Source: Mya arenaria
Lineage: Eukaryota
DNA: 64,000 nucleotides
Direction of reading: 5' to 3'
Assembly: GCF_026914265.1 (NCBI RefSeq)
Contig: NC_069127.1
Location: 1,681,682 to 1,745,681 of the forward strand
A program made the translations under genes and the position numbers. Positions 31,770 to 64,000 of the stretch are shown here, in pieces. Each line of letters opens with the position of its first letter. Within the stretch, counting starts at the first letter, position 1. Below the pieces are notes generated by a model. The model was not told the DNA's origin and did no database searches. It was given only the letters and a program-made list of their open reading frames with translations.

Positions 31770-31868
31770 AGGTCTGATGATGCCACGTGTAGTAGTTGAT
31801 GACCACGGAGGTAAAAGGTCAGATCCAGGCATGCTCGGGTCAGGCATCTATTTCGCCAGTGCTGCAAG
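31770..31868 (+). CDS. PARP4: PARP4 exon 10 (RGLMMPRVVVDDHGGKRSDPGMLGSGIYFASAA)
   Basis: Acceptor atttccag at 31768-69. Donor AAG|gtggga at 31869. GSGIYFA is the PARP signature, Tyr present. Confidence 0.8.
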
Positions 31869-33934: not shown

Positions 33935-34250
33935 TGTTAATCCTGTAAACTCATCTCAGGAAAGTTGAGCACGCCACAATAAATGTGTAATCCTGTAAAC
34001 TCATCTCAGGAAAGTTGAGAACACCAAAATAAATGTGTAATCCTGTAAACTCATCTCAGGAAAGTTGAGCACACCACAATAAATTTGTAATCCTGTTAAC
34101 TCAGTTTAGGAAAGTTGAGCACACCACAATAAATGTGAAATCTTGTAAACTCATCGTAGGAAAGTTAAGCACACCACAATGAATGTGTAATTCTGTAAAC
34201 TCATCTTAGGAAAGTTGAGCACATGGCCATTAATATGTAACTTTCCTGCA
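33935..34250. repeat. tandem repeat with a ~60-bp unit (TAATCCTGTAAACTCATCTCAGGAAAGTTGAGCACACCACAATAAATGTG)n, about 5-6 copies, ending at the exon 12 acceptor
   Basis: Direct tandem repeat in intron 11. Confidence 0.8.
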
Positions 34251-34251
34251 G

Positions 34252-34402
34252 GATGATGAGTTTGTGGTATACAGTGTTCGCCAGCAGAGGATTCGCTACC
34301 TAGTTGAGTTTACGACAACCAAGGACACTGTCTACCCATTTAAACTACCGGTCAGTCTGACTGAACAAGCCATGGACCAGGATGACCAGCCTGGACAGAT
34401 CA
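34252..34402 (+). CDS. PARP4: PARP4 exon 12 (DDEFVVYSVRQQRIRYLVEF.., catalytic Glu present)
   Basis: Acceptor ttcctgcag at 34250-51. I chose donor ATCA|GTGAGC at 34403 because its phase 1 matches the next exon. An alternative donor CCG|gtcagt at 34351 does not. Confidence 0.7.
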
Positions 34403-34559
34403 GTGAGCATCATTTTGTTCTTTATTGGAAAATGTTGAACATATCCCTACTTAAAGAACACTGTTAACTGTTATTTCATTTCCTTTAAAGTGAAGCAATA
34501 TGAACAGTTGTTGGTTGCAATTCCTTTACGAATGAACAACTTCTTTTGTCTTTTATTGT

Positions 34560-34960: not shown

Positions 34961-35044
34961 CCCAACAAACACTCATGTTTTATGAATGATTGAAGTTCAC
35001 CAGACCTGTAATCTCAGTAATCATGCTTTCCTGTAATTTCCCAG

Positions 35045-35175
35045 GTCTATCTGATGTGAAGGACATTATAGACCCTATGTCCAAGGTCAAGGCTGGGCTC
35101 GTCTCCATAGATGATGCCCCTGTGAACTTGAAGGCTGTCCATATCAGGGCAAACCTGATGGACCTAGCATCGGAG
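35045..35175 (+). CDS. PARP4: PARP4 exon 13 (start of VIT region: LSDVKDIIDPMSKVKAGLVSIDDAPVNLKAVHIRANLMDLASE)
   Basis: Acceptor tttcccag at 35043-44. Donor GAG|gtatgt at 35176. Confidence 0.75.
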
Positions 35176-35894
35176 GTATGTTGAGTTTTGCTTTGAATAG
35201 TTTAAGCTAAATTATGTAAGAAAATACAAAAAGAATTGTAATGACTATTTCTTTTTATAAAATACTTCAAGTTCATGCACAACAAGCTTGATCATCATAA
35301 AAAAAATTCAACACCATCATTCTGCAAAAAACATTTCTCAAATGTACCGTAACATGGTCCATTCAGATAGCATTTATATTTTTGTGATATTTAGTGGTCA
35401 TGGATCAATTGTCTTAGATAGGTGGTGGTTTTCCATTGGTATGAGAACTCAATAAAGGGGGAACAAGGTCCATGCAGTAGAATCTCCTTAATACTTGTCT
35501 CCCTTGTTATATTAAGGCATTCAATACACAATAATTTGAATTTGGATGTCTGGTGACTTCATACCATTTGGCATTTGGAAGGGTTTTATTTGCTAAGCAT
35601 TTATATGTATGTTAAATATATGCGAAAAAATAATATTACAAATTTGTTTTGCAGTGAAATATTGCAATTTGTGATTACATGTTCGATTTCAGTTGAAATG
35701 AAACAAAAATACAAACTGCTATAATTGTTAACTATAATATGCATTTAATCATTTATTTTTGATGATTATGATCAGCAAGTAAAACCCTTTTAAATATCGG
35801 TAACACCAAATTTATATGGAGTCAACAGGCATCAAAGTTCACATTATCAGCGATGGCATTATAAAATGACAAGCTGTTATGTGGATCAGGTTCC

Positions 35895-36262
35895 TTTAAA
35901 GCTGCACTCTCACAGATTTACTGTTTTTACAACTTCATAAAAAAAATATCATAGAATGAGCAATTTTTTGTGTAAATATCTGCATACCAGTGATACAAGA
36001 CTGCTGACAAAAGATCAGATTGCAGGTATTCATATTTCAGTTTGAATTAATGTGTTATGGCTTAAAGCGTTACTAATGGTTTAAGAAATCGCATAAAACA
36101 TCATTTTTTTAACTTATTATTAAATAAAAATCTGCGATCTAATTTTTTGTCAGCAGTCTTATATGACTGGTTTCCATGCATTTTCATATAAATTGGCTAG
36201 TTCCAAGACAAAAAATATTTTTTTTATCAAAACAGCCAATCTGTTAGAGTGCAGCTTTAAGG
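35895..36262. mobile_element. MITE (~370 bp) with ~28-bp TIRs (TTTAAAGCTGCACTCTCACAGATT) and a second internal inverted pair (GACTGCTGACAAAAGATCAGATTGCAG)
   Basis: Terminal inverted repeats at 35895-35925 and 36235-36262, immediately upstream of the exon 14 acceptor. Confidence 0.55.
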
Positions 36263-36288
36263 CAAATAATACAAATATGTCCTTGTAG

Positions 36289-36513
36289 GTGGTGGTTCTG
36301 CAGCAGTATGAGAACACCAGTAAGGTCCAGGTGGAGGCAAAGTATGTGTTCCCGCTGGGAGAAATGGCTGCCGTGTGTGGCTTTGAGGCATTCATCAATG
36401 GCAAACACATCATAGGAGAGGTGAAGGAGAAGGAGACAGCCCACAGGGAATACAAGAAGGCTGTCAGTGAGGGACATGGGGCATACCTTATGGACCAGGA
36501 TGAGGAAACACCG
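36289..36513 (+). CDS. PARP4: PARP4 exon 14 (VIT domain: ..EAKYVFPLGEMAAVCGFEAFINGKHIIGEVKEKETAHREYKKAVSEGHGAYLMDQDEETP)
   Basis: Acceptor ccttgtag. Donor CCG|gtatat at 36514. Long identical stretches to human PARP4 (AAVCGFEAFINGKHI, GHGAYLM). Confidence 0.9.
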
Positions 36514-36718
36514 GTATATGGGCGCTGGGGGTTAATATTAGAATTTGTGTTGCTTTAGGGCATTACAAACACTGGTATTTTGGCAGTATGTGTTAACATT
36601 AGGATAAGTGTTGCTGTAAATATCTGACTGTAAAACTGGGATAATTTAAAAGAACACTGCTGTAGGAATTTACGAACACCCTATAGTGGTGATGTGACAG
36701 TCCATCAAAGGGTAGGAC

Positions 36719-37221
36719 TTTAAAGGGACTATACACCAGATTGGCACCAATTTTTTTTTTTTCTGTAACAAATCTCAGGACAATTATTTAATAAAATGTT
36801 TTACTCTTTGATATCATAATTGTAAAAAAAATCCCAAAAATGTAAAAAAACATCGAATCGGAGACCAGGTTTGAACCGGTGTCGGCAAAATTGCAGTCCA
36901 GTGTTGTATCCACTGTGCTACGAAGGTTTACCCTAATCACTTGGAATATTTAAGCTATATACCTAACTTGGTAATATTACGTGATAACATCAACTAGCTT
37001 ATCATGCATAAGAATGAATTCTACTAGGTATACATACCTAGTAATCTATTTTAATGGAAAATACGTAAAAACTGCGAAAAATAAATTAATTGTAAACTAT
37101 GCGGTACTTCAATTAGTTAGTTTCAATGCAATGCACACATTGATATCAAGTTTATGTCAGTTTTCGACAATTTTTTTTTTTTTTTTGCAAATTCATTATA
37201 CAGTGTATAGCCCCTTTAAGG
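36719..37221. mobile_element. MITE (~500 bp) with TIR CTTTAAAGGGACTATACAC; contains a tRNA-like (Cys-GCA-like) segment on the minus strand at 36851..36930
   Basis: Inverted termini at 36719 and 37203-37221. The internal segment has A-box TAGCACAGTGG and B-box-like GGTTCAAACC, but the acceptor stem does not pair. I read this as a tRNA-derived repeat, not a tRNA gene. Confidence 0.5.
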
Positions 37222-37551
37222 GTTAAGAATTAAGAATACTTATTAGGTTTATTGTTACAGAGTCTTGTCAGTAATTGCAGTAAATGTCCATAGTTACCAG
37301 TTGTACATGTACTCTCTATAGTGCAATGTTGAAATGAGCAGACATAACTGCAAATATCTGTGAAAATAAATTAGAATGTAAAGTAATGCCTTTTTATAAC
37401 ATACATGTACTTTTTCAAATTATGCTAAAGATAATGATAATTAAGCATTTTACCATTAATACATTTTAATCATATATCTTGTGTCATGCTGTATTTTAAC
37501 TTAGAATGATGGTTTCTGTGTTCTAACATGTATTCCCCCTGTGCCTTCCAG

Positions 37552-37713
37552 GATGTGTTTACAGTGAGTGTTGGTAATTTGCCGGCAGGAGCAACTGTGC
37601 TTATTAAGATCACCTATGTCGCCGAGCTGCAGGTTGAGGGCGAGCTCATCAGCTTCCGCCTCCCGGGCTCCGTCGCCCCCTGGAAGAAAGACTCCCTCAA
37701 GGAAGTAACTCAG
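37552..37713 (+). CDS. PARP4: PARP4 exon 15 (VIT: DVFTVSVGNLPAGATVLIKITYVAEL..)
   Basis: Acceptor ccttccag at 37550-51. Donor CAG|gtacag at 37714. Human DVFTVSVGNLPPKAKVLIKITYITEL. Confidence 0.9.
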
Positions 37714-38170
37714 GTACAGAAATAAACTTGATACGATCTGCCAAGGTGTTTTATACTTTGTATTGTAAAATTATTGCAGAAGAATGCAAAACTGATGACA
37801 AAAGTACAATGGTAGGGGTGGTCTATCTGATGTGAAAGCTTGTTTCAAAAACCATTAAACACATTCAAATGAAACTAGTTACACATGTTGCCAGAGACAA
37901 TATGCTCATATACAGCAAGGCCCTTTGTCTGATTAATAATTGTAAAGTGATGCCCTTTTTTAGTTTAAAAAAGGTAAAAAACTTTAACTTAGCTATAAGA
38001 TATTAACTAGAAAGTTTTTTCAAATGTTACTTGGTACAAAATGAGCATGAACAGCAAAGTCCATTGATCTGGTTTTTATATTTTATCGTCAATTTGTGCT
38101 ACTTGACAGATTGAAAGTAAAATTAAATACCGAACAAGAAACTGATTTTAAGGATTGGATTTTTTTGCAG

Positions 38171-38657: not shown

Positions 38658-38923
38658 GTACTTAGTCGGTCATAGCGAGGGACAGATAGTATCTAGGTTA
38701 CTTTGCCTGTCCATAGTCTAAGGATGGGTTTCATCTGCTAATAATGTTAGAAGTTTATAGCAGTTTACTAAGAATCCCTTCCTTCTTACAAATTATAAAA
38801 CTAATGATTGTAACAGGATTGCCTGAAACCGACAGAGACAAAATGGAACAATGAAATTATTTTGTTGACTTTTTATTTCTCAGAAATGTTATGTTATACT
38901 TATTCATCTTGTTTAACTTGCAG

Positions 38924-39110
38924 GCATGCATGCTGACATTCTACCCACAGTTTGAGGCTTGTGAGTCTGAGACCTCTTGTGTTACTTTTCTACTTGACCT
39001 GTCCAACTCCATGAAGGGTGACACACTGAGTAATGCCAAGAAAGTTCTCCTCCTATCCCTCCAGCTTTTGCCTGCAGCCTGGACATTCAACATTGTTGTG
39101 TTCGGAACTG
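38924..39110 (+). CDS. PARP4: PARP4 exon 18 (start of vWA: ACMLTFYPQFE..VTFLLDLSNSMKGDTLSNAKKVLLLSLQLL..NIVVFGT)
   Basis: Acceptor aacttgcag at 38922-23. Donor CTG|gtcagt at 39111, phase 1 out. Human ACMLVFQPDL..IICLDCSSSMEG..NIIQFGTG. Confidence 0.85.
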
Positions 39111-39457
39111 GTCAGTATTACCACTGTTGTCGATGGACCTTAAAATGAAGGTCTTTTATGGTATCATTATAATTTCCAATTTTAACAAAATGTACCCTGC
39201 TCCATCTGCTATTCTTTGCTTCCCCTTTATGTGGATTTGGCTGAACCACAACAAACTGGCTTAAGAAAGATTCAAGAGCCCAAATGTTCTTTTGACAATA
39301 GCATTCTCATTCTGAATTCTGAAAGTTTTGTGATGTGTTAAAACCTGAGATATTTGTAAAGAACTTTACTATTTGTTTCTTATGTATTCAGTCTCATTCA
39401 TGGCTTGTTTAGTTAGTGTTAATTATGGAAATCTTTACTTTGTATATCTGATTTCAG

Positions 39458-39531
39458 CATTTAAAGAGCTGTACCCTGTGTGTATGCCTAAGACCACAGC
39501 ACGTGTGAAACAGGCTTCAAACTTTATCATG
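39458..39531 (+). CDS. PARP4: PARP4 exon 19 (AFKELYPVCMPKTTARVKQASNFIM)
   Basis: Acceptor gatttcag at 39456-57. Donor ATG|gtatga at 39532. Confidence 0.7.
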
Positions 39532-39806
39532 GTATGAATGACACATGCACGTGTATCTGTATTAAGTTTTGATGTACTTTATTTTTGATAAAACTATTGG
39601 TTAAAGATCTTGAAATATTCTTTAATGGTTGGTACTATAGTTAGCACATTAATTTGATGTCATTTCACACCTAGTAAACTGTCTGTCTATATATATTCAG
39701 TACAGTTTAATATTCTTACATTTGACTGGTTTGTTGTCTAACGTTAAAGGGTCATCAGATTTAGGGTATTCCTGTTTTTGCATTTTGAACTATTTTGTTT
39801 GTGCAG

Positions 39807-39994
39807 GGCTTGACAGCAACCCTTGGCAACACGGAAGTTATCCGACCCATGCACACATTCTACCTGCTGAAGCCTGAGTCATCCATGCAGAACGTCTTCC
39901 TCATCTCTGATGGACACGTGAACAACACGGACGTAATATTGGAGGCAGCCAGGCGGAATGCAGAACATACAAGGATTTTTACCATGGGTGTCAG
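39807..39994 (+). CDS. PARP4: PARP4 exon 20 (vWA: GLTATLGNTEVIRPMHTFYLL..VFLISDGHVNNTDVILEAARRNAEHTRIFTMGV)
   Basis: Acceptor tttgtgcag at 39805-06. Donor CAG|gtgatt at 39995, phase 2 out. Human MGNTDF..ILLVSDGHLQDES..RPHTRLFACGIG. Confidence 0.85.
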
Positions 39995-40454
39995 GTGATT
40001 ATAGTTTGTGCTTTTAAACACAATCTACATTAAATAAAAAAAATGTCTTTGTCCTCCTGTGTGAAAAGTTCTAAATGTTTGTGATTGTGATCTTAAGTGT
40101 TTATATTTTCAACCTATCTCCTTGCTCTTGTAATGGCTGCCATGTGAAACTTCATACAAGTTGCATTGTGAGCACTGTTTATCAATTTTGGGTGTAAGAT
40201 TTTCAGAGGTGTCCATTTAAGAAAAAGAAGACCATTTTCATGTTCATCAATTTATCTGAATAGAATTATCGTCATAAACAGAATGATGATACTAGTAGAC
40301 CTTATACAACGACAACAGCAACATCAACAACAAACTATTTGAACTGAGGTTAAACTATGCCACTAGGATTCTACAAAAAAAACTGTATTTAAGAATTCAA
40401 TACATATATTTGAAATCACACAATTGTAACTACATGCAAACAATGTATTACCAG

Positions 40455-40554
40455 CTCGACAGCAGACACCCACATGTTGAGATCCCTGGCCAGGGTTGGA
40501 GCAGGGGCCTATGAGTTCTTCGATCCCAAAGTCAAGTCCAAGTGGGAGGGAAAG
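40455..40554 (+). CDS. PARP4: PARP4 exon 21 (SSTADTHMLRSLARVGAGAYEFFDPKVKSKWEGK)
   Basis: Acceptor ttaccag at 40453-54. Donor AAG|gtaaga at 40555. Human STANRHVLRILSQCGAGVFEYFNAKSKHSWRKQ. Confidence 0.85.
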
Positions 40555-40955
40555 GTAAGATGGGATTTATGCTGAGCTATTTTCATTCATTTTGCATTCA
40601 ATTTTTATCATGATCTCATCTGTTTGTGATCAAGTTTTAAAAATATATTTGTATCAATTAAAATCTGAAATGTCAGCTGTTATTTTAAACCATTTAGGAT
40701 ATTTTAATGACTCTTGGCACACATGTTCATAATGACATAACCCACATATTATTATAATTATAATCAGGGGTGAGAATCTTGCATGGATTGAGTTTTTTGT
40801 CTTCTAAGCAAATATCTTTAAATGCAATCTTTAAGGCTTGTAAAATACTCCAAACCCAAGTTTTGAGAGGTCTTCACCCCCTGTGTCCCCTACCAAGGTC
40901 GTACCCTGGACCACTAGCGTAAAGTTCAGGGATTTTTCTATTCAGTCATTCTAAC

Positions 40956-42007
40956 TAGGGATGCAAACGAATATTCGAATATTCGAATATTCGATCAAAC
41001 GTTTGGTATTCGAATGGCAAAATCGGTATTCGAATATTCGAAAAAAATGTTGAATAAATAAAATAAAAAAACCTTTGACCTACAAGGCTGCAATTGTGTA
41101 TTTAGTTCTTTTGTCATGTTTTTACAATGATTGGCCCCTAATGCCAGAGGTGTGAATGTGATGACAATACACTAAACACGCGTCATATGTCATTTAGGGA
41201 CATATCGCCTGGTACTATAAAAAGTCCCCGTAATTTTACAACTTGCTATTGGACAAGTGACACCAATGCCTTTGCCAATTAAGGATTTAAGGAAACGGCC
41301 TTCACACTAATGTGCTGTCTTGGTTCACACTGATGTGCTATCTTGGTTCACACTAATGTGCTGTCTTGGTTGCAGATTAAGCTATGCAACATTGCTCAAA
41401 TTGCCGTGATACTATGTATGGCATTTGCTACAATAATGCAGATACATGTATGTGCTGTTAACTGTTTTCCATGTTTCGTTGCACTGTTCTTGCTTTGAAA
41501 TGTTACTGTATAGTATAGCGTTTTAGGATATATTGCCTCTATTGATGTAGAAGAATCAAATTGATATATGTTTCGTTTTATCATTTTACAAGTTCCCGAG
41601 TTGGTTTGGTATATAAGGTAGAGGTCTATCCCAGAACGAGACTGCTCGTCCTACGGAAAGACCCTCCGTTGGCTCATTACGCCATATGATTAGGAATCCA
41701 TCTAATTTCACATTGTTTCACAATATGAAGGCAGCGGAATTATTCGATTTTGATTTTTGATTGTTCATAATGAATTACCGTTTTCTATATAAAAATGGGG
41801 AATTTCAGAGACTCATATGGGGAAATAAGGGTCCGCTGCGCGTAGTTGCTACAACAAAGAAGGATCAAAATGAATTGGCTATTACTTAAGCGAATGATAA
41901 TAATAGTTTAATACAACTTTGAAAAGATGTATTTTGGTTATCGAATATTCGATTGAAAGAATTACCGAATATTCAAATATCAATTTTGCCATTTGTTTGC
42001 ATCTCTA
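40956..42007. mobile_element. non-autonomous hAT-like element (1052 bp) with Ac-like TIRs TAGGGATGCAAAC / rc TAGAGATGCAAAC and a perfect 8-bp TSD ATTCTAAC; in PARP4 intron 21
   Basis: TSD at 40948-55 and 42008-15. The TIR resembles the Ac/Ds terminus TAGGGATGAAA. Subterminal GAATATTCGAATATTCG repeats at both ends. Confidence 0.65.
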
Positions 42008-42094
42008 ATTCTAACCCCTGCTTTGTGATAAATCTCATCATTTGATTATGACTTGCCATGATCTAATACTGACAACCATATCTACATATGGCAG

Positions 42095-42265
42095 GTGAAA
42101 AGCCAGCTAGGGAGGGCATCCCAGCCAGGGCTGACGTCTGTGCATGTGAACTGGGAGCAATATGGGGCTGATGTCCCGTCCCCTGTGCAGGCCCCTCGAC
42201 AGATCACAGCAGTCTTCAGTGGATCCAGACAAGTCATATATGGATATGTCCAGAACTGTACGATG
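42095..42265 (+). CDS. PARP4: PARP4 exon 22 (VKSQLGRASQPGLTSVHVNWEQYGADVPSPVQAPRQITAVFSGSRQVIYGYVQNCTM)
   Basis: Acceptor atatggcag at 42093-94. The donor ATG|gtgcga at 42266 is weak and is supported only by frame continuity into the next exon. Confidence 0.65.
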
Positions 42266-42599
42266 GTGCGAAAACAGTTATATACAACCCTTAAATGCAT
42301 TTAATATCTTGGTTTGCAACTTGTACATTTTAATGATTATTTTATAATGATATTATTATTATTAAGTTCTTTTGGACACAGCGGTGCTCAGAGAAATGTT
42401 ATACACAATTGGATTAAATGCTTTCTTAAATCTCTATCTCAGGAGTGTCATGTGATCATTCTAAATATAACAATCATGATTCTCTGAAATTAAAAGCTGC
42501 AGTTGCATTTTTCCAGTAATTTTTATTCTTTTGATTTTAAATATTGTTTCATTTGAAAATAAGCATAATGTAAGACAGTTACTCTAAGGTGTAAATAAG

Positions 42600-43050
42600 T
42601 ATTGGTTATTGAATTTAATCAAGTATGGTTATTGAATTAAATTAAGTATTGGTTATTGAATTAAATTAAGTATTGGTTATTGAATTAAATTAAGTATTGG
42701 TTATTGAATTTAATTAAGTATTGGTTGTTGAATTTAATTAAGTATTGGTTATTGAATTTAATTAAGTATTGGTTATTGAATTAAATTAAGAATTGGTTAT
42801 TGAATTAAATAAAGTATTGGTTATTGAATTTAATTAAGTATTGGTTGTTGAATTTAATTAAGTGGTGGTTATTGAATTTTATTAAGTATTGGTTATTGAA
42901 TTTAATTAAGTATTGGTTATTGAATTAAATTAAGTATTGGTTATTGAATTTAATTAAGTATTGGTCATTGAATTTAATTAAGTATTGGTTATTGAATTTA
43001 ATTAAGTATTGGTCATTGAATTTAATTAAGAATTGGTTAGTGAATTGATT
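42600..43050. repeat. minisatellite with a ~30-bp unit (GTTATTGAATTTAATTAAGTATTG)n, about 14 copies, in PARP4 intron 22
   Basis: Direct tandem repeat. Confidence 0.85.
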
Positions 43051-43149
43051 TGGCCACCTCTAAATTGTTTTATTTCCTGAAGCCTGTGATTTTCTAATGT
43101 ATTATAGCTGCCTCAGTGTAAGTACATGTTACACTCAATGTGTCTTCAG

Positions 43150-43230
43150 GCAACATTACGAGCCCAGATAGCAGGTGATGAGGTCTCCACCATGGTCTCC
43201 ACCTCTGACCTCAGCATTACAGAAGGCAAG
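43150..43230 (+). CDS. PARP4: PARP4 exon 23 (ATLRAQIAGDEVSTMVSTSDLSITEGK)
   Basis: Acceptor gtcttcag. Donor AAG|gtatgg at 43231. Human QATLCALIQEKEFRTMVSTTELQKTTG. Confidence 0.8.
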
Positions 43231-43534
43231 GTATGGTGTTGAAATAAGACAAGCATTTTCAAGTGAATGTCTTCTCAACAGACAATTCTTAAAGACACAC
43301 ATATGAAGGACAAAACCTTTTTTTTATTTGAAATATATTTCATGCATTTTGTAGATAATACCAATGAAATTGACACAATGTTTAAACTTTTTTTCCAAAA
43401 GTATTTTCAAGTAAAATGGAATCTTGTATCTTCTGAAATATCTTATATGATAAGTCGGTGAAAAATGGATATTGCCATGTTTATGGCTTAATTCAAATGA
43501 CTGTGTCATCTCATGTTGAAACTGTTTTCTACAG

Positions 43535-43615
43535 CTCCTGCACCGTTTAACAGCAAGGGCAGTAATTCGGGACTGGGAGGATGGAATGCTCTCCCCTGAC
43601 AGGACAGACCATGAG
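43535..43615 (+). CDS. PARP4: PARP4 exon 24 (LLHRLTARAVIRDWEDGMLSPDRTDHE)
   Basis: Acceptor ttttctacag. Donor GAG|gtgggc at 43616. Human MIHKLAARALIRDYEDGILHENETSHE. Confidence 0.85.
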
Positions 43616-43639
43616 GTGGGCTTATTGTATGAAGATTGA

Positions 43640-44200
43640 AATCTAGGACCAGGATTAAATGATGAACATGGAAATAAGTGATATGGTTTACTTGATGAAC
43701 ATAATATGGGATCTGGCTTAGGTTATGACCATAAAAATGCAGGATCTGACTGAGGTCACTGATGTGTAAACGTACATGTAGGCTCTGGCTTTTGTCATGG
43801 CCATTAAAATGTAGGATTTGGCTTAGTCCATGACTACATATATAAATGAACTGGCATATTCTTTGATATTGGAAATGCAGAATCTAGCTTAGTCTATAAT
43901 TTTTAAATGCAGAATCTGGCTTAATTTATGCTGTGGAAATGAAGAATCTGGGAAAAACAGTATATGGCTTAGGCTATGACCACGGAAATGTAGGATCTGG
44001 CTTAGTCAATGACCATGGAAATGTTGGATCTGGCTTAGTCAATGACCATGGAAATGTAGGATCTGGCTTAGTCTATGACCATGGAAATGTTGGACCTGGC
44101 TTAGTCAATGACCATGGAAATGTAGGACCTGGCTTAGTCAATGAACACAGAAATATAGGCTTAGGCTTGGCCTATGACAACAGAAATGTAGGATCTGGGA
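43640..44200. repeat. minisatellite with a ~33-bp unit (ATGACCATGGAAATGTAGGATCTGGCTTAGTCA)n in PARP4 intron 24
   Basis: Direct tandem repeat. Track ORF 43933..44322 (DHGNVGSGLVN repeats) is an artefact. Confidence 0.85.
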
Positions 44201-44287
44201 AAGAAGGTATCTGGCTATGTGTATGGACAGGAAATAGTAAGATCTTCCTCATACACATGAAAATGCATATTATTTTGTTGATTTCAG

Positions 44288-44389
44288 ATCATGAAGATGA
44301 ACACAAAGGACTTTATAATTGAGCTGAGCAAGGAGTATTCAATTGTGACACAGTTTACCAGCTTTGTTGCCATAGAGAAGAGAGACAAG
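44288..44389 (+). CDS. PARP4: PARP4 exon 25 (IMKMNTKDFIIELSKEYSIVTQFTSFVAIEKRDK)
   Basis: Acceptor gatttcag at 44286-87. Donor AAG|gtgggt at 44390. Human SLIIKLSKENSLITQFTSFVAVEKRDE. Confidence 0.85.
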
Positions 44390-44938: not shown

Positions 44939-45031
44939 GATGAGGAGAAGAGGTCAGTGGATGCGCCGGCGATGTCAGAGCTCGTGGAGAGGGAGGATGT
45001 GGACAAACTGCAGTACATGGGATATGAGGAG
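44939..45031 (+). CDS. PARP4: PARP4 exon 26 (DEEKRSVDAPAMSELVEREDVDKLQYMGYEE)
   Basis: Acceptor atgttcag at 44937-38. Donor GAG|gtatgg at 45032. This donor is duplicated about 12 times in the following intronic minisatellite. Confidence 0.75.
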
Positions 45032-45039
45032 GTATGGCT

Positions 45040-45946: not shown

Positions 45947-46123
45947 GAGATGAAGCCTGATCTGGACTATGATAAGGAGATTGCTGCTGTGCTGACCAAC
46001 GTGAGACTTAACTTCATGTCACAGCAGAAACAGGTTGAGTTTCTCAAACATGGGTTCCAACTTCTTGAAGATGGTTCGTTCAGGGATAATGATTACGAGG
46101 CATGGCTACAGAAGAATAAAGAG
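45947..46123 (+). CDS. PARP4: PARP4 exon 27 (EMKPDLDYDKEIAAVLTNVRLNFMSQQKQVEFLKHGFQLLEDGSFRDNDYEAWLQKNKE)
   Basis: Acceptor tataccag at 45945-46. Donor GAG|gtttgg at 46124 (weak). Open frame of 59 codons. Confidence 0.65.
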
Positions 46124-46981: not shown

Positions 46982-47057
46982 CTTGAGGAGGTTTATGATG
47001 ATTGGGACTTAGATGAAGACTTCAACTTTGAATCGACTTTCATGAGAAAAAGAATGA
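46982..47057 (+). CDS. PARP4: PARP4 exon 28 (LEEVYDDWDLDEDFNFESTFMRKRM)
   Basis: Acceptor ctttctttcag at 46980-81. Donor ATGA|GTGAGT at 47058, phase 1 out. Confidence 0.65.
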
Positions 47058-47583: not shown

Positions 47584-47687
47584 GTCAGCCAAAGAAGCAG
47601 CCACTGATAAATGTGAATGTTAGAACTTTAACTGGGAAAACAGTGAGTGTTGATGCCTCCCCTCACTCTTCTGTGGAGGAGTTAAAG
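47584..47687 (+). CDS. PARP4: PARP4 exon 29: first half of the ubiquitin-like domain (SQPKKQPLINVNVRTLTGKTVSVDASPHSSVEELK)
   Basis: Acceptor ttgtttttttaag at 47582-83, phase 1 in, which matches exon 28. Donor AAG|gtaagt at 47688. NVRTLTGKTVSVD parallels ubiquitin IFVKTLTGKTITLE. Confidence 0.7.
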
Positions 47688-47689
47688 GT

Positions 47690-48900
47690 AAGTGTTGATG
47701 CCTTCCTCTGTCTACTGTGGAGGACCTAAGGGTGAGTGTTGATACTTCCCCACTTTCTACAGTGGAGGGCTTGAATTTGGGTTTTGATGTTTACCCTCTC
47801 ACTATAGAGGGCTTGAAGGTGGGTGTGTGCACCTCCCATCTCTCTACTTTAGAGGACTTTAATGGTGGTGTTGATGCCTCCCCTCTTTTTACTGTGGAGA
47901 GATTAAATGTGGATGTAGATGACTCCCCTGTCTCTAATCCCCTTTCTACTGTGGAGAGCTTGAAGGTGGGTGTTTGCGCCTCCCATCTCCCTTATCTATT
48001 GCCTTTACTCCCCTCTCTCTACTGTGGAGGGCTTGAAAGTGGGTGTTGATGCCTCTGCTCTCTCTATTGTGGAGGGTTGAATGTGGGTGTTGATGCCTCT
48101 GCTCTCTCTATTGTGGAGGGCTTGAAAGTGGGTGTTGATGCCTCTGCTCTCCCTATTGTGGAGGGTTGAAAGTGGGTGATGATGCTTCCTCTCTCTACTG
48201 TGGAGGGCTTGAATGTGGATGATGATGCCTCCACTCTCTATTGTGGAGGGTTGAAAGTGGGTGTTGATGCCTCCCATCTCTCTATTGTTGAGGGTTGAAA
48301 GTGGTTGTTGATGCCTCCTGTCTTTCTATTGTTTTGGGTTGAAAGTGGGTGTTGATGCCTCCCATCTCTCTACTGTTGAGTGTTGAAAGTGGGTGTTAAT
48401 GCCTCTCCTTTCCCTACTGTTAATGGTTGAAAGTGGGTGTTAATGCCTCCTGTCTCTCTACTGTTAAGGGTTGAAAGTGGGTGTTAATGCCTCCTCTCTC
48501 TATTGTTGTGGGTTGAAAGTGGGTGTTAATGCCTCCTCTCTCTATTGTTGTGGGTTGAAAGTGGGTGTTAATGCCTCCTCTCTCTATTGTTGTGGGTTGA
48601 AAGTGGGTGTTGATGCCTCCTGTCTCTACTGTTGAGGGTTGAAAGTGTGTGTTAATGCCTCCTGTCTCTATTGTTGTGGGTTGAAAGTGGGTGTTAATGC
48701 CTCCTGTCTCTACTGTTGAGTATTGAAAGTGTGTGTTGATGCTTCCCTCTCACTACTTTTGAGTATTGAAAGTGTGTGTTGATGCCTCCCCTCTCTCTAC
48801 TGCTGAGGGCTTAAACATGGGTGTTGATGCCTCCCCTGTCTCTACGCCACTCCTCTCTTTACTTTGGAGGGCATGAGGATGGTTGTTGATGCTTTCCCTC
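47690..48900. repeat. minisatellite with a ~57-63-bp unit (GTGGGTGTTGATGCCTCCCCTCTCTCTACTGTGGAGGGCTTGAAA)n, about 20 copies, in PARP4 intron 29; derived from the exon-29 3' end (GTTGATGCCTCCCCTCACTCTTCTGTGGAGGAGTTAAAG|GTAAGT)
   Basis: The array starts at the exon 29 donor and its unit is recognisably homologous to the last 40 nt of exon 29 plus the donor. Track ORFs 47717..48049 (+) and 48005..48277 (-) are artefacts. Confidence 0.85.
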
Positions 48901-49250: not shown

Positions 49251-49427
49251 GCGTTGATCCAGGATCGCGAGGGGATTCCTCCTGATCAACAGCGACTCAT
49301 ATACGCAGGCCGACAGCTAGAGAATGGACAGACCCTTGAGGACTTCAATATACAGAAGGAGGCAACATTTCACCTTGTACTGAGTCTACGTGGAGGACCT
49401 GATAATGCTCGAGGCACTGATTTGTGA
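49251..49427 (+). CDS. PARP4: PARP4 exon 30: second half of the ubiquitin-like domain ([58 protein letters not shown]); a possible alternative 3' end at 49423 via the GTGAGT donor that overlaps the stop
   Basis: Acceptor ttttttacag at 49249-50. Compare ubiquitin [48 protein letters not shown]. Stop TGA at 49425-27 sits inside GTGAGT (49424-29). The N-terminal part of track ORF 49038..49427 is intronic. Confidence 0.75.
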
Positions 49428-50519: not shown

Positions 50520-51400
50520 AGAAGGTAAGCATGTCCTGAAATCTTTTTCACCAGAAACGCTCGAGAAAACTACCCTCACACTATTTTCACCAGAAACCCT
50601 CTAGGACACTGCCTTCATCCTTTATTTACCAAAACCCCTCTAGGACACCATCACCCAATTTTCACTAGTAACCCACTAGAACACTGCCTTCACCCTAATT
50701 CCATCAAGGACACCACCTTCATCTTTTTTTCGCCAGAAACCCTCCAGGACACCTCCTATTCACTATTTTCACCTGGAACGCTCTAGATCACTGCCTTCAA
50801 CCTATTTTCACCAGAATCCCTCTAGAACACTCATCCTTATATCACCAGAAACCCCCAAGGACACTGCCTTCACCCTAATTTCACCAGAAACCCATCTAAG
50901 ATACCACCTTCACCCTATTTTCACCAGAAACCCTCTAGAACACTGCCTTCGCCCTATTTTCACAAGAATCCCTCAAGGACACCTCCTTCACCCTGTTTTC
51001 ACCAAAACCCCTTTAGAACAATGCCTTCACCCTGTTTTCACGAGAAACCCTCTAGAACACCGCCTTCACATTGTTTTAACCAGAACCTCTCTGGAATACA
51101 ACCTTCACCCTATTTTCACAAGAAACCTACTAGAACACAATCTTCACTCTATTTTCACCAGAAACCCTAGAGAACACTGCCTTCACCCTATTTTCACAAG
51201 AAACCTACTAGAACACAACCTTAACCCTATTTTCACAAGAAACCTCTTAGAACACAACCTTCACTCTATTTTCACCAGAAACTCTCTAGAACACTGCCTT
51301 CACCCTATTTTCACCAGAATCCCTCTAGAACACTGCCTTCACCCTATTTTCATCAGAAACTTTCTAGAACACCGCCTTCACCATAATTTAATAGTGAAAG
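50520..51400. repeat. minisatellite with a ~45-bp unit (ACCCTATTTTCACCAGAAACCCTCTAGAACACTGCCTTC)n, about 19 copies
   Basis: Direct tandem repeat downstream of the UBL exon. Confidence 0.85.
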
Positions 51401-54457: not shown

Positions 54458-54547
54458 TGCGAGAAACTACAGGAGGAAGTCTATGAAGAACTGTCTCCTG
54501 AAAGGTGTTTTGCTGAGCCGATTCGATATGATGAACAAGAAAGGATG
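54458..54547 (+). CDS. candidate exon C: CEKLQEEVYEELSPERCFAEPIRYDEQERM
   Basis: Acceptor cttttcag at 54456-57. Donor ATG|GTAAGG at 54548. Phase 0 to 0. Confidence 0.55.
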
Positions 54548-54924
54548 GTAAGGATTGGATGCAAATGGTCGAGTTAGAAGGCATATAGACTAAAGAGCTA
54601 AGATGTTTGTTAATCCAACTCCATAAGCTTGTTCTCTGATAGCTCCATTTATGTTAAATAAATGCCTTGTGACCCCATATAATTTTGATATCATTTAAAA
54701 GGCATTCAAAAAATACTGACTTGTTTATTCATTTGTGATGGAAACATCGTTATCGGTTGCATTAGATAGGTCAAGGCCTGGGTTTGGTTTCTAGGTGAAT
54801 GATTCTAGGGCTCGGTGGACCTTCTTGTGATGAAAAAATAATTCAACAGCAAAATTCTTCATGCATTAGTTTAAACTTGTATATTTTACAACATTATATT
54901 AATCACTCTCATTTGCATGATATT

Positions 54925-55040
54925 ACGTGAGAGTATGGTCTTGTGTTTTGGGGGAAACGGGAGTATCTGGAGGAAACCCACTTATCTGGCTTGGTGACCA
55001 CAAACCAAAAGCTTCATGCATTGAGCTGCCATAGGACCTG
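54925..55040 (+). mobile_element. fragment of the SINE family seen at 835..1012
   Basis: Shared segment cttgtgtt..gg.aaac.ggagta.c.ggag.aaac.cacttatctggcttggtgaccac. Confidence 0.4.
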
Positions 55041-55118
55041 TTATGATTCAATGATGATGAAACAGGTACTGTAAGGAGGTACATTGAGTTAAACACTTAA
55101 AATGCCCCTCTTTCATAG

Positions 55119-55337
55119 TTAGTGGCTTCAGATGAAGATTTGGATGAAGATTTGGATGAATGTATGTATGAGGAGGTCTATGATGATGTCAGATACATGG
55201 CAGCAAGCCCCAACTACTCGCCCACAAATCCTGCCTACTCACTGACAAGTCCTGCCTACTCACTGACAAGTCCTGCCTACTCACTGACAAGTCCTGCCTA
55301 CTCACCAGCAACTCCTGCCTACCAACAAAAGCCAAAG
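55119..55337 (+). CDS. candidate exon D: acidic stretch plus CTD-like heptads ([73 protein letters not shown])
   Basis: Acceptor tttcatag at 55117-18. Donor AAG|GTAATG at 55338, phase 0. Five tandem heptads Y-S-[PL]-[TA]-[NST]-P-A resemble the RNA Pol II CTD consensus YSPTSPS. The next exon would lie beyond the transposon-like block or off the window. Confidence 0.55.
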
Positions 55338-55577: not shown

Positions 55578-56410
55578 ACAGGAATCCAGTGGATTTCACG
55601 TGAAATCCACTCAAAACGTGAAATCCACTCAGAACTCAGTTATTTTAATTAATAATTTAATTTTTTTATATACATATTAGAAAGTGTCTCATGAAGGGTT
55701 TATATTTCAAATTTTATTGAAATTGGTCAAAAAAATAAAGAAGTTAGAGCAATTTTTCATTTTTTTCCAAAATAGATCGGAAATCGAGGTGAAATCCAGA
55801 TTCCGATAGTGAAATCCACTCATAACTCATTAATTTTAATAAATAATTTCTGTTTTTGTATATTTATTAGAAAGTGCCTCATAAAGGGTTTATATTTCAA
55901 ATTTTATTGAAATTGGTCAAAAAATAAAGAAGTTAGAGCAATTTTTCATTTTTTTTTTCCAAAAATAGATCGGAAATCGAGGTGAAATCCAGTTTTTGAG
56001 AAGTGAAATCCACTCATAACTCATTAATTTTAATAAATAATTTTCTGTTTTTTGTATATTTATTAGAAAGTGCCTCATGAAGGGTTTATATTTCAAATTT
56101 TATTGAAATTGGTCAAAAAATGAAGACGTTAGAGCAGTTTTTCGAAAATAGATCGGAAATCGAGGTGAAATCCAGTTTTCGAGAGGTGAAATCCACTCTT
56201 AACTCAGTTTTATTAATTATTAATTTTTATTTTTTGTATACATTTTGGAAAATGCCTCATGAAGGGTATATTTTTCAAATTTTATTGAAATATATCAAGA
56301 AATGAAGAAGTTAGAGCAATTTTTCGGAAATCGAGGTGAAATCCATATTTTGACAAGTGAAATCCACTTTTTTCAGACGTGAAATCCACTCACAACTCAT
56401 TTATTTTTAT
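55578..56410 (+). repeat. left subterminal tandem array: ~185-190-bp unit x about 4.5, rich in GTGAAATCCACTCA / palindromic GTGGATTTCACGTGAAATCCAC
   Basis: Unit anchored by AGATCGGAAATCGAGGTGAAATCCAG at 55778, 55969, 56149 and about 56320. The reverse-complement of this unit forms the array at 63130..64000. Confidence 0.85.
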
Positions 56411-58195: not shown

Positions 58196-61086
58196 CTATT
58201 TGAAATACACATGTTTGTGTATTTTCAACAGATTAACTTTAACTTTGCTGAGTTCCTGTGTATTGAATTTAAAATGACCTCTTTCATTGACAAGTTCAGG
58301 AGCTTCTAGCTTTGAAATGATATGTTCTGTTGGCTCCTGAGAAACGTCTGACTTCTCAGGCCACACATATGCGTTTCCAGCTTTCTTCATATATTTAAGC
58401 CCATATTCTGTTTCAGATTTACTTGTAATTTCAGCAACGTAAACACTTATGGGTCCTTTTCTCGGTTTGAGCCCAACGGTAACAAAATCACCAGGTTGAA
58501 AGGCTGTATCTTGTTGGGATGTTGTTGCTGCTGTCTCTTCTATTTTTCTCCTCTTGGCTTTTGGTTGCTTGGTCTCCGATTTTCTTTTCAAAGTTATTTG
58601 TTTCTGTCCTTTTGTTTGTTCTTTGCAGGTTGCTTTAGGCTGCTCCTTGTTAGATGGTTGTTTCTTCTTTACATTTAGTTTTTCTTGGACTTTACTAATA
58701 ACATCAAGGTTTCTTTTTCCCCACTTATTAACTATGTCTACATTCTCACATTTTGATGTTACACCATTCACACAAGCATCACAGTAACAACTAAGTTTCC
58801 TTGAGTTCAGCTCATAGTCTTTACCAACAGACTTAACAGAGTGCAGCTTCCGTGTTCCAGTTAATGTTTGTGAATTTGTTTCTGGTCGGTTTCTATTCAC
58901 ATTTTCAACAAATACAAATTCTCTTCTCGACAGAGTGCTTTTTACAGTGTCCACTACTTCCATATTCAGAGTTTCTTGACAAAATTGGTAAACGTCTTCA
59001 GCATTACCAAGAACTTTCCTGTTACTTATTACAGCACGATAACAAGCATTCTTTACAGTTGCACCCAACCCATCACAGACATTCTTTCCATGAGACGTTT
59101 CAAAGTAGTTTCGAGTCATTTTGGGCTGCTTTCTGAGACTGATATCAGCAAACGCCTTTTTCCCCTTGTACTGGGCTGCACACCCATCAGTCCACTCGTG
59201 GAGTTCACCAATCTTCACCCCTCTGCTTTCTAGTAATTTAATGGCTTGATTCTCGAAGACAATTGCTAAATCCGCATCATGTTTGGTTTCTTCACTTACT
59301 CCAATGATGGCATGTTTTACTGTAACATCTTTGTCATCAAGACTTTCTTTATAGTAGCACATCATTGGATGTACAGTTGCCTGGTTTCTATCAAAGAACC
59401 CTGACTGCACTTCACTTTGGAAGACACATGCATAGTTCTCACTGAAATCCATTACCATGGCTACAGATCCCTTTGTTAATTTCTCTACACATACACCCAT
59501 TTGTTTCTGTTGCCAGGATGCTCTAAATGCATGCTCTGGGTACACCATCATGTCTTTCTCTAAAGCTGTCAAAAACACTTTGAAATCAGCTTCTTTGGGC
59601 ACACAAGAAACGCAGCGCTTTACTTTGTCATATTTCTTTATTTCAATGCTTTCCCATTGATACCATGACACCATCCCATCTCTGTTCATTTCTTCCATAG
59701 TCGCCAAATACTTTTGAAGGCCTTGTACTCCACATTTTTCACAATTTCTTGACACACATTTTAAAGATGGCTCTTGTTCATAGCTGCAGAATGTTGCATC
59801 ACTCAGACTCTTCTTATCAATCTTAATGTCTTCTGTCATGTCAGTCTCTTTTACAACTCGTTTCAATGTTGTAAGTGCTTCTACTTTCAGGGCTACATTA
59901 CAACAAGTCTGGCACAGGCATGACCGTCTGCTTGTCTCGGACACTTTCTTTACATTAACTGGTTTTAGTTTGCTGAATGATGTAAGTCCTATTTTATGAT
60001 TGGGGTTTCTTGTTTTGTATAACTTGTGTGTTTCTTCTAGTGTCATTGTCATCACATGTTTCTGTAGTGTTTCTTTCATACCAGTCTGAGTTTTGATTCT
60101 AACAACATCGCGTTTGGATGGCACCTCTCTACTAATTTCAGCACTCAGGTAGAACTCTTTCACTGATTGTTTCACATGATCACTTATCACATCACATCTT
60201 GTTTTTCTCTGTTTCTTTTTCCACCATTCATTTCTCATCTTCATTGTCTTGTAAGACACATTGAAATATTTACTAACTGTGATTTTTTGTATTTCCTTAG
60301 TACTGATTCACGTATTACATCATATGCATGTTTCTTTTCTCTGTCTTTTCGAACACCAATGTTTACTTCGGAAATACTTTCTTTCAAGGAATTCACTATA
60401 GCATCTGCTACTTCAAGTTTCTTCTTACAAGCTGGTGTCATTGTTACTCCTTGGTCAGAAAGTACTTTGGATGTTGAAGGTGACTCAATAAGCTTCTTTA
60501 AAATGGCGGCTTTCTTCTTTGGTGTCCTAGGCAGAATGCCTTTCACCATTTGCGCTCATCTGTATATTGTTGCACGGGATAAGTTACTTTTGTTCTGTCT
60601 GCTTTCTCCATGACTGTCATTTTCATCAACTGTGTTAACAATTGGAATTGTAGGAGACTTAAGTTTAATTCGCATTCTCCAGGCTTGTGTTCGCTTCACA
60701 GCTTTTTTCTTTTTTTTCTTCCAGAGCCGGTTTCTTACTCTTTTTAACACCAGGATCTTCAGAAGAACATGTTGTTTTCATCTTTTTTCTCTGTCTGTAT
60801 CTTTTCATTTCTTCAGCTTTTTTCTTTCTTAAGGAGGGTTTTAATTCAGGATCTGAATTGGCCATGAGTTTCACTTTCATTCGAGCTTCCTTCTTTCTTT
60901 CTGTGTCTTTCTTTTTGATTTCAGAATATTTTGTGGAGTTTTCTGTTTTCTGACGCATTCTCCATGCCTTGACTTTCAGCCTGTTTTTCTCCTTTTGCTT
61001 CTTTTCTATGTCTTCATTCTTTTCAGCATTCATTTCAGCATTTTTTTCAAGTTTCCGGGATCGCAGTGATGATTTTCGGCTCTCTT
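58196..61086 (-). pseudogene. transposase-like TE gene, main ORF 687 aa (58196..60259) preceded by Lys/Glu-rich N-terminal region; interrupted by two +1/-1 frameshifts (about 60700 in an A8/A6 run; about 60260) and one in-frame TGA (60556-58)
   Basis: Motifs: Cys clusters (CLCQTCC, CVSRNCEKC); MVMDFSENY; HEWTDGCAAQYKGKKAF; SHGKNVCDGLGATVKN. These would be compatible with an RNase-H-fold DD(E/D) catalytic core if the first, second and third acidic residues sit there, but the family is not recognised. The KAWRMRQK / QAWRMRIK motif repeats across the first frameshift. Confidence 0.5.
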
Positions 61087-61722
61087 CTGTAAAAAGACAT
61101 TCTGAATATTAATTAACCTTAAACGGTTGGGTTCAATGTATACCTTAGAATATTAATATATATGGTATATAAATCTTCATATAAAGACAGGTTTTGTGAA
61201 AAGAAAAACCTCAAAAGGTATAAATGTCCCTATATGGTTCAATTGTATTGTTTCTGTTCATAAAAATGTTTTTGAACATACTTACAGTAGACTTAGAAAC
61301 AAGTGGCCGTATTTTGTAGAGTCTGTAACCTGAGTACAAGTACAAATCAAATATTACTTAAGCTTCAATTCTGTACATTTAACAAGTATCCACTGTGTCT
61401 GTGATCTGTATATTATAACACTGATTGTATTCATTGGCATACACGCCAATCTTTATGTAAAAATATTTCATCTCGGCTCCGTAATAGGCTCCACAAAATG
61501 AAATTGTGTGTCATACTGTCATAGGATTTCCATTAAACAACCTGTTAAGACCATTTTAGTTTGTTATATGTTGGGCATGGCAATTTCAACAAATTAGCAT
61601 CACAACATGTGCATTTCATGTGGACAATTGCATTAATTCAGGGCATCATGTACAGACATATGGTTTTGGTTACGGACCCTACGTAACATAGCATGGAATG
61701 TTTAGATAAGGATAATACATAC

Positions 61723-63129: not shown

Positions 63130-64000
63130 ATACTTGATTGAATTTATTTCTTTACACTTTTTTTCCCAAATACTGGATTTCACTTGTCAAAATGTGGATT
63201 TCACTTCGCTTTCAGATCTATTTTCAATATATTTATCTAACTTCTTCATTTTTTAACCAATTCCATTTAAATTTTTAAATATAAACCGATGATAATGCCT
63301 TTTCAATTATTTGTTCAACATTTTTTTTTTCAAAATAAATGAGTTATGAGTGGATTTCACGTCTGGAAAAGTGGATTTCACTTGTCAAAATGTGGATTTA
63401 TCTACGCTTTCAGATCAATTTTAAATATATTTATCAAACTTCTTCATTTTTGGACCAATTCCATTTAAATTTTAAATATAAACCGATAATAATGCCTTTT
63501 CAATTATTTGTTCAACAAAAAAATAATTTGTTAAAAATAAATGAGTTATGAGTGGATTTCACGTCTGAAAAAGTGGATTTCACTTGTAAAAATGTGGATT
63601 TCACTTCGATTTCCGATCTTTTTTCAAAATAGGTCTACAACTTTCTTATTTTTGGATCAATTTGGATAAAATTTGAAATATAAACCCATTATGAAGCCCT
63701 TTCAATTATTTGTTCTATAGAAAAAATAATTTGTTAAAAATAAATGAGTTATGAGTGGATTTCACGTCTGAAAAAGTGGATTTCACTTGTCAAAATGTGG
63801 ATTTCACCTCGATTTCCGAAAAATTGCTCTAACTTCTTCATTTCTTGATATATTTCAATAAAATTTTAAATATAAACCCTTCATTAGGCACTTCCCAAAA
63901 TGTATACAAAAATAAAAATTACTAATTAATAAAACCGAGTTAAGAGTGGATTTCACTTCTCGAAAACTGGATTTCACCTCGATTTCCGATCTATTTTCGA
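63130..64000 (-). repeat. right subterminal tandem array (same ~190-200-bp unit in inverted orientation; truncated by the window end)
   Basis: AATGAGTTATGAGTGGATTTCAC recurs at about 63340, 63550, 63750 and 63940. It is the reverse-complement of the left array unit. Confidence 0.85.

Follow-up and report, generated by a model that had tools for sequence, protein, structure and literature searches.

Why should a short run of heptads resembling the carboxy-terminal domain (CTD) of the RNA polymerase II protein RPB1 be encoded among the exons of another gene? The question is raised by positions 55119-55337, on the plus strand, of a 64,000-nucleotide (nt) stretch of Mya arenaria contig NC_069127.1 (the window, throughout this text), an exon-like unit that we call exon D. 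The explanation that we favor, and consider rather probable, is that exon D is a coding exon of a long disordered linker in a PARP4-like (vault PARP) gene, in which an old motif has recently been amplified. The elements of exon D are these:

55119-55337 (+): exon D, 219 nt and 73 codons, phase 0 to 0, with an AG acceptor at 55117-55118 and a GTAATG donor at 55338.
55128-55193 (+): acidic Tyr/Cys block of 22 residues, including a 12-nt repeat present 2.5 times at 55131-55160.
55194-55214 (+): degenerate first heptad, YMAASPN, read from the codon table.
55215-55319 (+): five CTD-like heptads, YSPTNPA at 55215, YSLTSPA at 55236, 55257 and 55278, and YSPATPA at 55299.
55236-55298 (+): three identical 21-nt units, TACTCACTGACAAGTCCTGCC (TAC TCA CTG ACA AGT CCT GCC), a recent tandem expansion.
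55320-55337 (+): trailing YQQKPK, to be compared with ...SPSFYQP of Lingula.

An earlier note on this DNA had described these heptads, and they are present as described, in exact 7-residue register; in the codon table, seven tyrosines of exon D fall at exact 7-residue intervals. The interval that the note delimited coincides exactly with the exon-like unit, whose borders read ...ctttcatAG/TTAGTG at 55118/55119 and CCAAAG/GTAATG at 55337/55338. Forward translation leaves frame 1 as the sole open frame, with stops in each of frames 2 and 3. The note had also held that three YSLTSPA units are identical in their DNA and that the expansion is therefore recent: there are exactly three copies of the 21-mer CTACTCACTGACAAGTCCTGC, at 55235, 55256 and 55277, and these three identical units bear out a recent expansion. 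Tandem Repeats Finder (TRF) describes the array as period 21, 4.7 copies and 93% matches over 55224-55322, and reports the 12-nt repeat GATGAAGATTTG (x2.5) in the acidic block. Where the outer heptads depart from the core, they do so by silent substitutions (Ser TCG/TCA, Pro CCC/CCA) and conservative replacements, with the peptide pattern kept. A scan of all six frames of the window found no second run of two or more Y....P. heptads.

The likeness to the RPB1 CTD is confirmed by Pfam and PDB searches. The Pfam model PF05001 (RNA_pol_Rpb1_R) scores 29.7 bits against exon D (cut-off 20.3), and a phmmer search of the PDB with exon D returns RPB1 chains and CTD peptides to an E value of about 0.3, the best being 8e-43; the non-RPB1 matches are three non-significant ones, to CDK7 and two RalF entries (E 0.22-1.2). 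Tyr1, Ser2, Thr4, Ser5 and Pro6 are held in exact register, YSLTSPA is the last heptad of human RPB1 in the PDB alignment (...YSPTSPTYSLTSPAISPD), and YSPTSPA-type units are known in real CTDs. Identity to YSPTSPS is 5/7 for the expanded units and for YSPTNPA, and 4/7 for YSPATPA. The differences from the RPB1 CTD are as plain as the likeness. Pro3 is absent in three of the five units, the expanded ones, where Leu replaces it, and Ser7 is absent in all five, each having Ala; there are five units against about 26-52 in RPB1; the array lies inside a linker rather than at a C-terminus; and its acidic block is on the N-terminal and not the C-terminal side. The RPB1 core is also lacking: no RPB1 domain was found among the open reading frame (ORF) pieces scanned, the same-strand neighbors being BRCT, PARP, VIT, VWA and ubiquitin-like domains. 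By its location, array length and Pro3 content, exon D falls outside the RPB1 CTD family. Nor does it seem at all probable that exon D is a captured or retroposed fragment of the CTD coding sequence of the species' own RPB1. Its high identity to CTD heptads, including SPNYSPT and YSLTSPA, would fit such an origin, but there are only five heptads, with Ala7 throughout, RPB1 core sequence was not seen nearby, and a lone heptad at the same place in the PARP4 of Lingula (discussed below) points to a local origin followed by amplification.

Such heptads had been called rare outside RPB1 in the earlier note, and rare they are, although not unique. In an exhaustive HMMER search with exon D (E<=1e-3), 391 of 1.84 billion cluster representatives match, with the heptads driving all 391. 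Among the best 150 of these 391, roughly half have RPB1-core similarity, and at least 24 carry 150 or more non-RPB1 residues before the heptads. Several of the non-RPB1 matches have SPAYSPTSPAY arrays and even YSLTSPA units; none is PARP4-like. These YSPTSP[AS] proteins (e.g. P0149, P0141, P0168, P0216 and P0276) resemble exon D in placing tandem SPAYSPT/YSLTSPA heptads on unrelated N-terminal sequence, and differ from it in that most have longer arrays, of 8-20 units. They come from environmental (ENA, Logan) contigs, and the sole named source is that of P0280, a marine-protist transcriptome entry. The few matches that align into the acidic block (P0232, P0175, P0149 and P0141) were set aside, all being unrelated proteins.

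Is exon D coding at all? The open frame alone is little proof, since a 21-nt unit holds any stop-free frame open and the window is very rich in tandem arrays. When every open frame of both strands is counted, however, only 5.2e-4 of random 21-mers matched in base composition code for a unit that shares at least 5/7 residues with some rotation of YSPTSPS, and the window has only about five period-21 arrays. With codon-usage log-odds trained on the mapped PARP4 exons, and with 2000 intronic windows of equal length as the null, frame 1 of exon D scores +18.7, frames 2 and 3 score -19.8 and -28.7, and the intronic maximum is -4.2. The span of the ORF, the splice sites, the codon usage and the synonymous changes between heptads together argue, beyond chance, for a coding exon. 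It is quite unlikely that exon D is instead an unexpressed 21-nt minisatellite, intronic or 3'-flanking, with a fortuitous open frame and fortuitous AG and GT. This reading can appeal to the extreme richness of the window in tandem repeats, where the arrays at 20-22 kb and 50.5-51.4 kb yield long spurious ORFs, and to a period divisible by 3, which keeps frames open (the unit is open in two of its three forward frames). It must also account for an ORF that crosses the non-repetitive acidic block and runs exactly from acceptor to donor, for codon usage far above the intronic null, for a chance of 5e-4 that a random 21-mer codes for a CTD-heptad match of at least 5/7, for diverged outer copies that retain the heptad through synonymous changes, and for the Lingula counterpart found in a RefSeq model.

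The arrays just mentioned are two related C-rich satellites on the plus strand, at 20135-21767 and 50545-51389, whose 30/90-bp and 39-bp units share TTCACCAG.A.C.CTC. Their long spurious ORFs, in two frames and up to 375 aa, encode peptide repeats (YSPGSP..., PSPYFHQKPSRT...) that could pass for coding sequence. Of the two, the 39-bp array (50.5-51.4 kb), one frame of which reads PSPYFHQKPSRT..., was considered as a linker exon and rejected because the related satellite, at 20.1-21.8 kb, sits upstream of the first PARP4 exon seen (BRCT, ~24.3 kb).

In what gene, then, would exon D lie? The window is eukaryotic DNA of ~36% G+C with many introns and satellites, and the gene whose exons precede exon D on the same strand is, judged from its BRCT, PARP, VIT and VWA domains, PARP4-like. 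Its parts, from the 5' end, are as follows, the splice sites from 44939 onward having been read by hand:

24276-25110 (+): BRCT exons, the start of the gene as far as seen (Pfam BRCT_2 44 bits, BRCT 41.8 bits).
29601-34464 (+): PARP regulatory and catalytic exons (Pfam PARP 67.6 bits; PARP_reg 19.7 bits, below cut-off).
34990-37722 (+): VIT exons (Pfam VIT 125.8 bits; tblastn).
38921-44389 (+): VWA and post-VWA exons (Pfam VWA_3 75 bits; tblastn with Tegillarca, Lingula, Ridgeia and Bulinus).
44939-45033 (+): conserved post-VWA exon, ...ELVEREDVDKLQYMGYEE / ...EDVDKLQYMGYEE, phase 0 to 0, equivalent by way of Lingula to about 1192-1221 of human PARP4.
45947-46123 (+): helical-looking segment, phase 0 to 0.
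46982-47057 (+): small acidic exon, LEEVYDDWDLDEDFNFESTFMRKRM / LEEVYDDWDLDEDFNFE..., phase 0 to 1, with a ctttcAG/ acceptor and an A/GTGAGT donor.
47584-47688 (+): ubiquitin-like domain, exon 1, phase 1 to 0 (Pfam).
49251-49421 (+): ubiquitin-like domain, exon 2, phase 0 to 2, donor TT/GTGAGT (Pfam ubiquitin 79.8 bits; tblastn to Bulinus P0108).
Between 49421 and 54458 (+): gap of ~5 kb after ubiquitin-like exon 2, with no recognised exon.
54458-54547 (+): probable exon preceding exon D, CEKLQEEVYEELSPERCFAEPIRYDEQERM, 30 codons, phase 0 to 0, cttttcAG/TGC and ATG/GTAAGG, predicted by a splice-site/ORF scan and with no homologue match.

A search with the VIT-VWA exons returned PARP4 or PARP4-like proteins of Tegillarca, Lingula, Crassostrea, Bulinus, Solemya, fishes and tunicates, and the best database matches to the region are named PARP4. 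Identity is 59% to a Lingula protein (P0274) over 456 aligned positions and 54% to Tegillarca. Exon-by-exon tblastn of PARP4-like proteins (Tegillarca, Lingula, Ridgeia, Bulinus) extends to 49397. Exon D itself shares an 18-nt stretch, GAGGAGGTYTATGATGAT (EEVYDD), with the small acidic exon at 46982, and both this exon and the one at 54458 begin in phase 0 and have an acidic, tyrosine-containing composition like that of exon D.

Lingula PARP4 has one heptad, SPAYSPTSPSFYQP, after an acidic Tyr/Cys block, between the VWA region and the vault-binding MINT. On the Lingula contig, the acidic Tyr/Cys block (SSDEEEYGEDLFLCDDGADYG) lies ~1 kb downstream of a PARP4-like exon ending EDVDILPYIGW, and the next exon encodes HEVSPAYSPTSPSFYQPVAE. 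In P0274, of 1627 aa, VIT-VWA ... EEEYGEDLFLCDDGADYG ... HEVSPAYSPTSPSFYQP ... MINT are joined in a single protein. In XP_013399094.1 (P0272, 962 aa), EDVDILPYIGW and the acidic block are followed by the heptad and then by a long stretch rich in FG and Pro, and the protein closes with a helical domain; its C-terminus aligns to the MINT of human PARP4 (1571-1705, E 2e-7), while human 1192-1221 is matched by its N-terminus. A 751-residue Lingula model was rebuilt from its coordinates; two solutions were possible, of which one reproduces XP_013399834.1 exactly, and P0272 and P0274 fall in the same cluster as this entry. The Lingula heptad matches those of the window in pairwise BLASTP with an E value of 8e-4. 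As far as these alignments tell, the heptad and acidic stretch of Lingula PARP4 are at the same relative place as exon D, which follows EDVD-x-L-x-YMxW in the same gene family, the Lingula counterpart preceding MINT.

This place is the linker between VWA and MINT (ITIHL-MVPID) of PARP4, and exon D is, like that linker, low in complexity, S/P-rich and acidic. It differs from what is known of the linker in that human PARP4 gave no CTD-like match in the PDB search with exon D, and linker sequences are unalignable between phyla save for the short heptad motif. In the literature, the linker of human PARP4 is said to be intrinsically disordered and to evolve fast, with a patch under positive selection in primates (PMC10450202), and rapid evolution of the PARP4 linker in primates is also described in PMC4038475. 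In cryo-EM of vaults, MINT is the sole ordered part of full-length PARP4 (PMC12280208). The earlier note had pictured a regulatory, intrinsically disordered tail. Disorder agrees with the description of the equivalent human region; a tail it is not, since exon D ends at a splice donor and the Lingula motif is internal, with about 850 more residues following, MINT included. The same note had granted that its reading would fall if the segment proved to be a known low-complexity region of an unrelated characterised protein, and on that count the result goes against it, for we take the segment to be the low-complexity linker of PARP4.

The comparison also touches several public gene models, which appear to be mis-split or mis-terminated fragments of PARP4. 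In Lingula (L003 10001-17303, P0271-P0274), the 'protein transport protein SEC31-like, partial' entry (XP_013399834.1) and 'serine/arginine repetitive matrix protein 1' (XP_013399094.1/XP_013399165.1) both correspond to the C-terminal half of PARP4, with linker and MINT; the remaining half of this split gene is the neighboring 422-aa model named 'PARP4-like'. The PARP4 model of Bulinus, discussed next, is a further case.

Where does the gene end? The ubiquitin-like domain keeps its LRGG (...LVLSLRGG), and the domain recurs in the PARP4 model of Bulinus truncatus (...LVHRLRGG); it was not seen in the Lingula protein sequences read. Mollusc-type PARP4 genes carry an embedded ubiquitin-like domain, and no description of this domain or of the heptad array in PARP4 was found in the literature searched. 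The in-frame TGA right after the ubiquitin-like exon sits inside a GTGAGT donor, and the equivalent Bulinus stop sits inside GTAAGT. Since both stops fall within consensus donors, the gene most likely runs past this point, and ubiquitin-like exon 2 is most likely an internal exon, here and in Bulinus, rather than the end of the gene. The Bulinus model (P0108; L001 19240-19262) ends RGGGGK at a stop inside a perfect G/GTAAGTAA donor, and is probably truncated by read-through into the intron. Close by in the window, the intron after ubiquitin-like exon 1 is filled by a minisatellite of ~25 copies of 42-45 bp (47643-48841, plus strand). Its unit is the 3' half of ubiquitin-like exon 1 with the donor (...GTGAGTGTTGATGCCTCCCCTC...GGAGGAGTTAAAG/GT), and each copy is exon-end/donor-like.

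It could be argued that the PARP4 gene ends with its ubiquitin-like domain at 49424 and that exon D and the exon at 54458 form a separate, unannotated gene or isoform unit downstream. A TGA does stand in frame directly after the ubiquitin-like exon, the Bulinus model stops there too, the ubiquitin-like exon ends in a phase other than that of exon D, and 5 kb without a recognised exon lie between them. We nonetheless regard this arrangement as unlikely. Each of the two stops falls within a consensus donor (GTGAGT and GTAAGT), PARP4 requires a MINT at its C-terminus and none has been encountered by 49.4 kb, the same motif is found inside Lingula PARP4, and the interval from 49.4 to 54.4 kb yielded neither a start exon nor any other domain.

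Several results weigh against the explanation that we favor, that exon D belongs to the linker of the PARP4-like gene. The donor of the ubiquitin-like domain is in phase 2, the exons at 54458 and D are in phase 0, and every direct join leads to a stop; when the ubiquitin-like exon was chained to exon D, acceptors 55119, 55123 and 55132 and the exon at 54458 all gave stops. A splice-site/ORF scan of the ~5-kb gap yielded no convincing bridging exon. From the phase mismatch it follows that at least one exon has been missed in the gap, or that alternative isoforms separate the ubiquitin-like exons from exon D. Downstream, tblastn of the Lingula MINT region found nothing at 55.4-64 kb, and the large Lingula linker exon plus MINT gave only low-complexity noise against the window; the MINT exon and the end of the gene are probably beyond the end of the window, or MINT is too diverged. 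In Lingula, the acidic block and heptad are in two exons, and the heptad exon is of phase 1-1, as against 0-0 for exon D. Homology of the acidic block with Tegillarca and Lingula was considered and dropped as not significant after composition correction, the likeness being positional and compositional only. The PARP4 loci of Tegillarca, Bulinus and Ridgeia have acidic stretches but no heptads within the available DNA. Finally, no orthologous linker came out of the protein databases, whether by the exhaustive HMMER search or by word-indexed searches: a word-indexed homologue search with exon D alone gave no match, and one with the composite linker exons gave only environmental YSPTSPA proteins.

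Having weighed these points, we still hold the PARP4 linker to be the better account, and it can be imagined as follows. The linker would tether the BRCT-PARP-VIT-VWA body to the C-terminal, vault-binding MINT/MVPID, with the ubiquitin-like domain inserted in this species. The ancestral linker may have carried a short linear motif in which an acidic Tyr/Cys stretch preceded one or two SP-x-Y-S-P-T-S-P heptads, the arrangement seen in Lingula. In the lineage of Mya, the heptad would have been amplified by replication slippage or unequal exchange of the 21-nt unit, the last three copies recently enough to be identical in their DNA. Slippage is plausible because the window is full of tandem arrays. 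Exon D has seven Ser/Thr-Pro sites, and since these and seven regularly spaced tyrosines lie beside an acidic patch, proline-directed and possibly tyrosine phosphorylation is likely; from its sequence, exon D is probably phosphorylated. It might serve as a flexible, phosphorylatable spacer or docking segment, with the Ser/Thr-Pro sites open to proline-directed kinases, and any CTD-like behavior would be confined to readers of Tyr1/pSer5-Pro6. That exon D is a low-complexity segment that evolves fast is more probable than that it mimics the polymerase tail.

Mimicry of the CTD has nevertheless to be considered. The acidic patch and heptads might act as a functional mimic or decoy that binds CID, WW/Pin1, capping enzyme, SSU72/SCP or CDK7/9; it might recruit CTD partners to PARP4 and vaults, titrate them from RNA polymerase II, or, once phosphorylated, be bound in cis by the BRCT domain of PARP4 itself. 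We judge this improbable. The PF05001 score above cut-off, the significant PDB matches, which are all to the RPB1 CTD, the identity of YSLTSPA with the last human CTD heptad, the conservation of one heptad in Lingula PARP4 and the presence of a BRCT domain in the same protein speak for such a function. In addition, a proven mimic, the Nrd1-interacting motif (NIM) of Trf4, likewise has an acidic stretch and then a Tyr/Pro turn (PMC4186968). The expanded unit, however, has Leu3 and Ala7 and is thus without the Ser2-Pro3 site and the S2-P3-T4-S5 turn used by CID-type readers, although Ser5-Pro6 remains. There are five heptads only, and between the acidic stretch and the first canonical YSP heptad come about five residues (RYMAA) plus the degenerate heptad's SPN. 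PARP4 is mainly a protein of the vault lumen, away from RNA polymerase II (PMC12280208), and human PARP4 is not among the exon D matches in the PDB at E values up to 10, though the full-length protein is in the library.

The Trf4 precedent is instructive in its differences as well. The Trf4 NIM binds the Nrd1 CID ~100-fold more tightly than does the Ser5P-CTD, and its authors expected the same arrangement in other proteins (PMC4186968). The NIMs of Trf4 and Sen1 resemble exon D in that, within a disordered region, an acidic stretch precedes a turn containing Tyr and Pro, by which the phosphorylated CTD is imitated (PMC4186968; PMC7110113). They are, however, single motifs of 9-11 residues with the acidic residues directly against the Tyr, whereas the block of exon D is several residues away and its motif is repeated; exon D has no equivalent of Y-N-P-Y, and nothing points to a CID partner or a nuclear role for it. 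By sequence comparison, exon D lacks the acidic stretch abutting a Tyr-x-Pro-Tyr turn that defines the NIM.

A more general proposal, that the acidic block and SP-x-Y heptads form a conserved docking module of lophotrochozoan PARP4, a phospho-regulated mini-CTD, also appears improbable. If it were true, phosphorylation of the Ser5 equivalent would recruit Pin1/WW, SSU72/SCP-type phosphatases, capping-enzyme-like domains or BRCT domains, possibly that of PARP4 itself; ADP-ribosylation and vaults would be linked to the machinery of the CTD code, and the copy number of the heptad would provide a tunable, polymorphic valency. Apart from any such module, if exon D is expressed, the PARP4 of this species would be among the few non-RPB1 animal proteins with a CTD-type array above the Pfam cut-off. 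The array sits in the tether whose evolution is rapid in primates, and for which a role in host-virus conflict or as a target of modification has been suggested. It may provide a natural test case for whether a few CTD-like heptads outside RNA polymerase II can draw CTD kinases and readers, and for whether the number of repeats varies between individuals.

The surroundings of exon D are themselves repetitive. A dispersed, SINE-like (short interspersed element-like) repeat of 106 bp is found at 54904-55009, ~110 bp upstream of the exon D acceptor, and again at 825-927, the two copies being 79% identical. Beginning 280 bp downstream of the exon D donor, a tandem array at 55618-56331 has units of ~196-202 bp, as has a second array at 63174-63816. 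A motif is common to both in their TRF consensus units, forward (GTGAAATCCACT) in the first and as its reverse complement (AGTGGATTTCAC) in the second. Pfam searches of the ORF pieces downstream of exon D, including a minus-strand ORF of 703 aa, found nothing, and neither did an Rfam search of 44-64 kb. This minus-strand frame (58199-60307) and an adjacent Lys/Glu-rich frame of 147 aa on the same strand (60668-61108), also without a Pfam match, probably represent a transposable element or an orphan gene.

Upstream of the PARP4-like gene, a 55-bp satellite at 13008-16787 (68.8 copies, 92% identity, G+C ~50%) is prominent in the composition profile of the window. Further upstream, two open pieces at 9390-9695 and 9941-10162 on the plus strand resemble, by eye, exons of scavenger-receptor cysteine-rich (SRCR) domains (GRLEVEYQGVWGTVCDDSF..., plus a 38-residue piece), which suggests that a different gene precedes the PARP4-like one.

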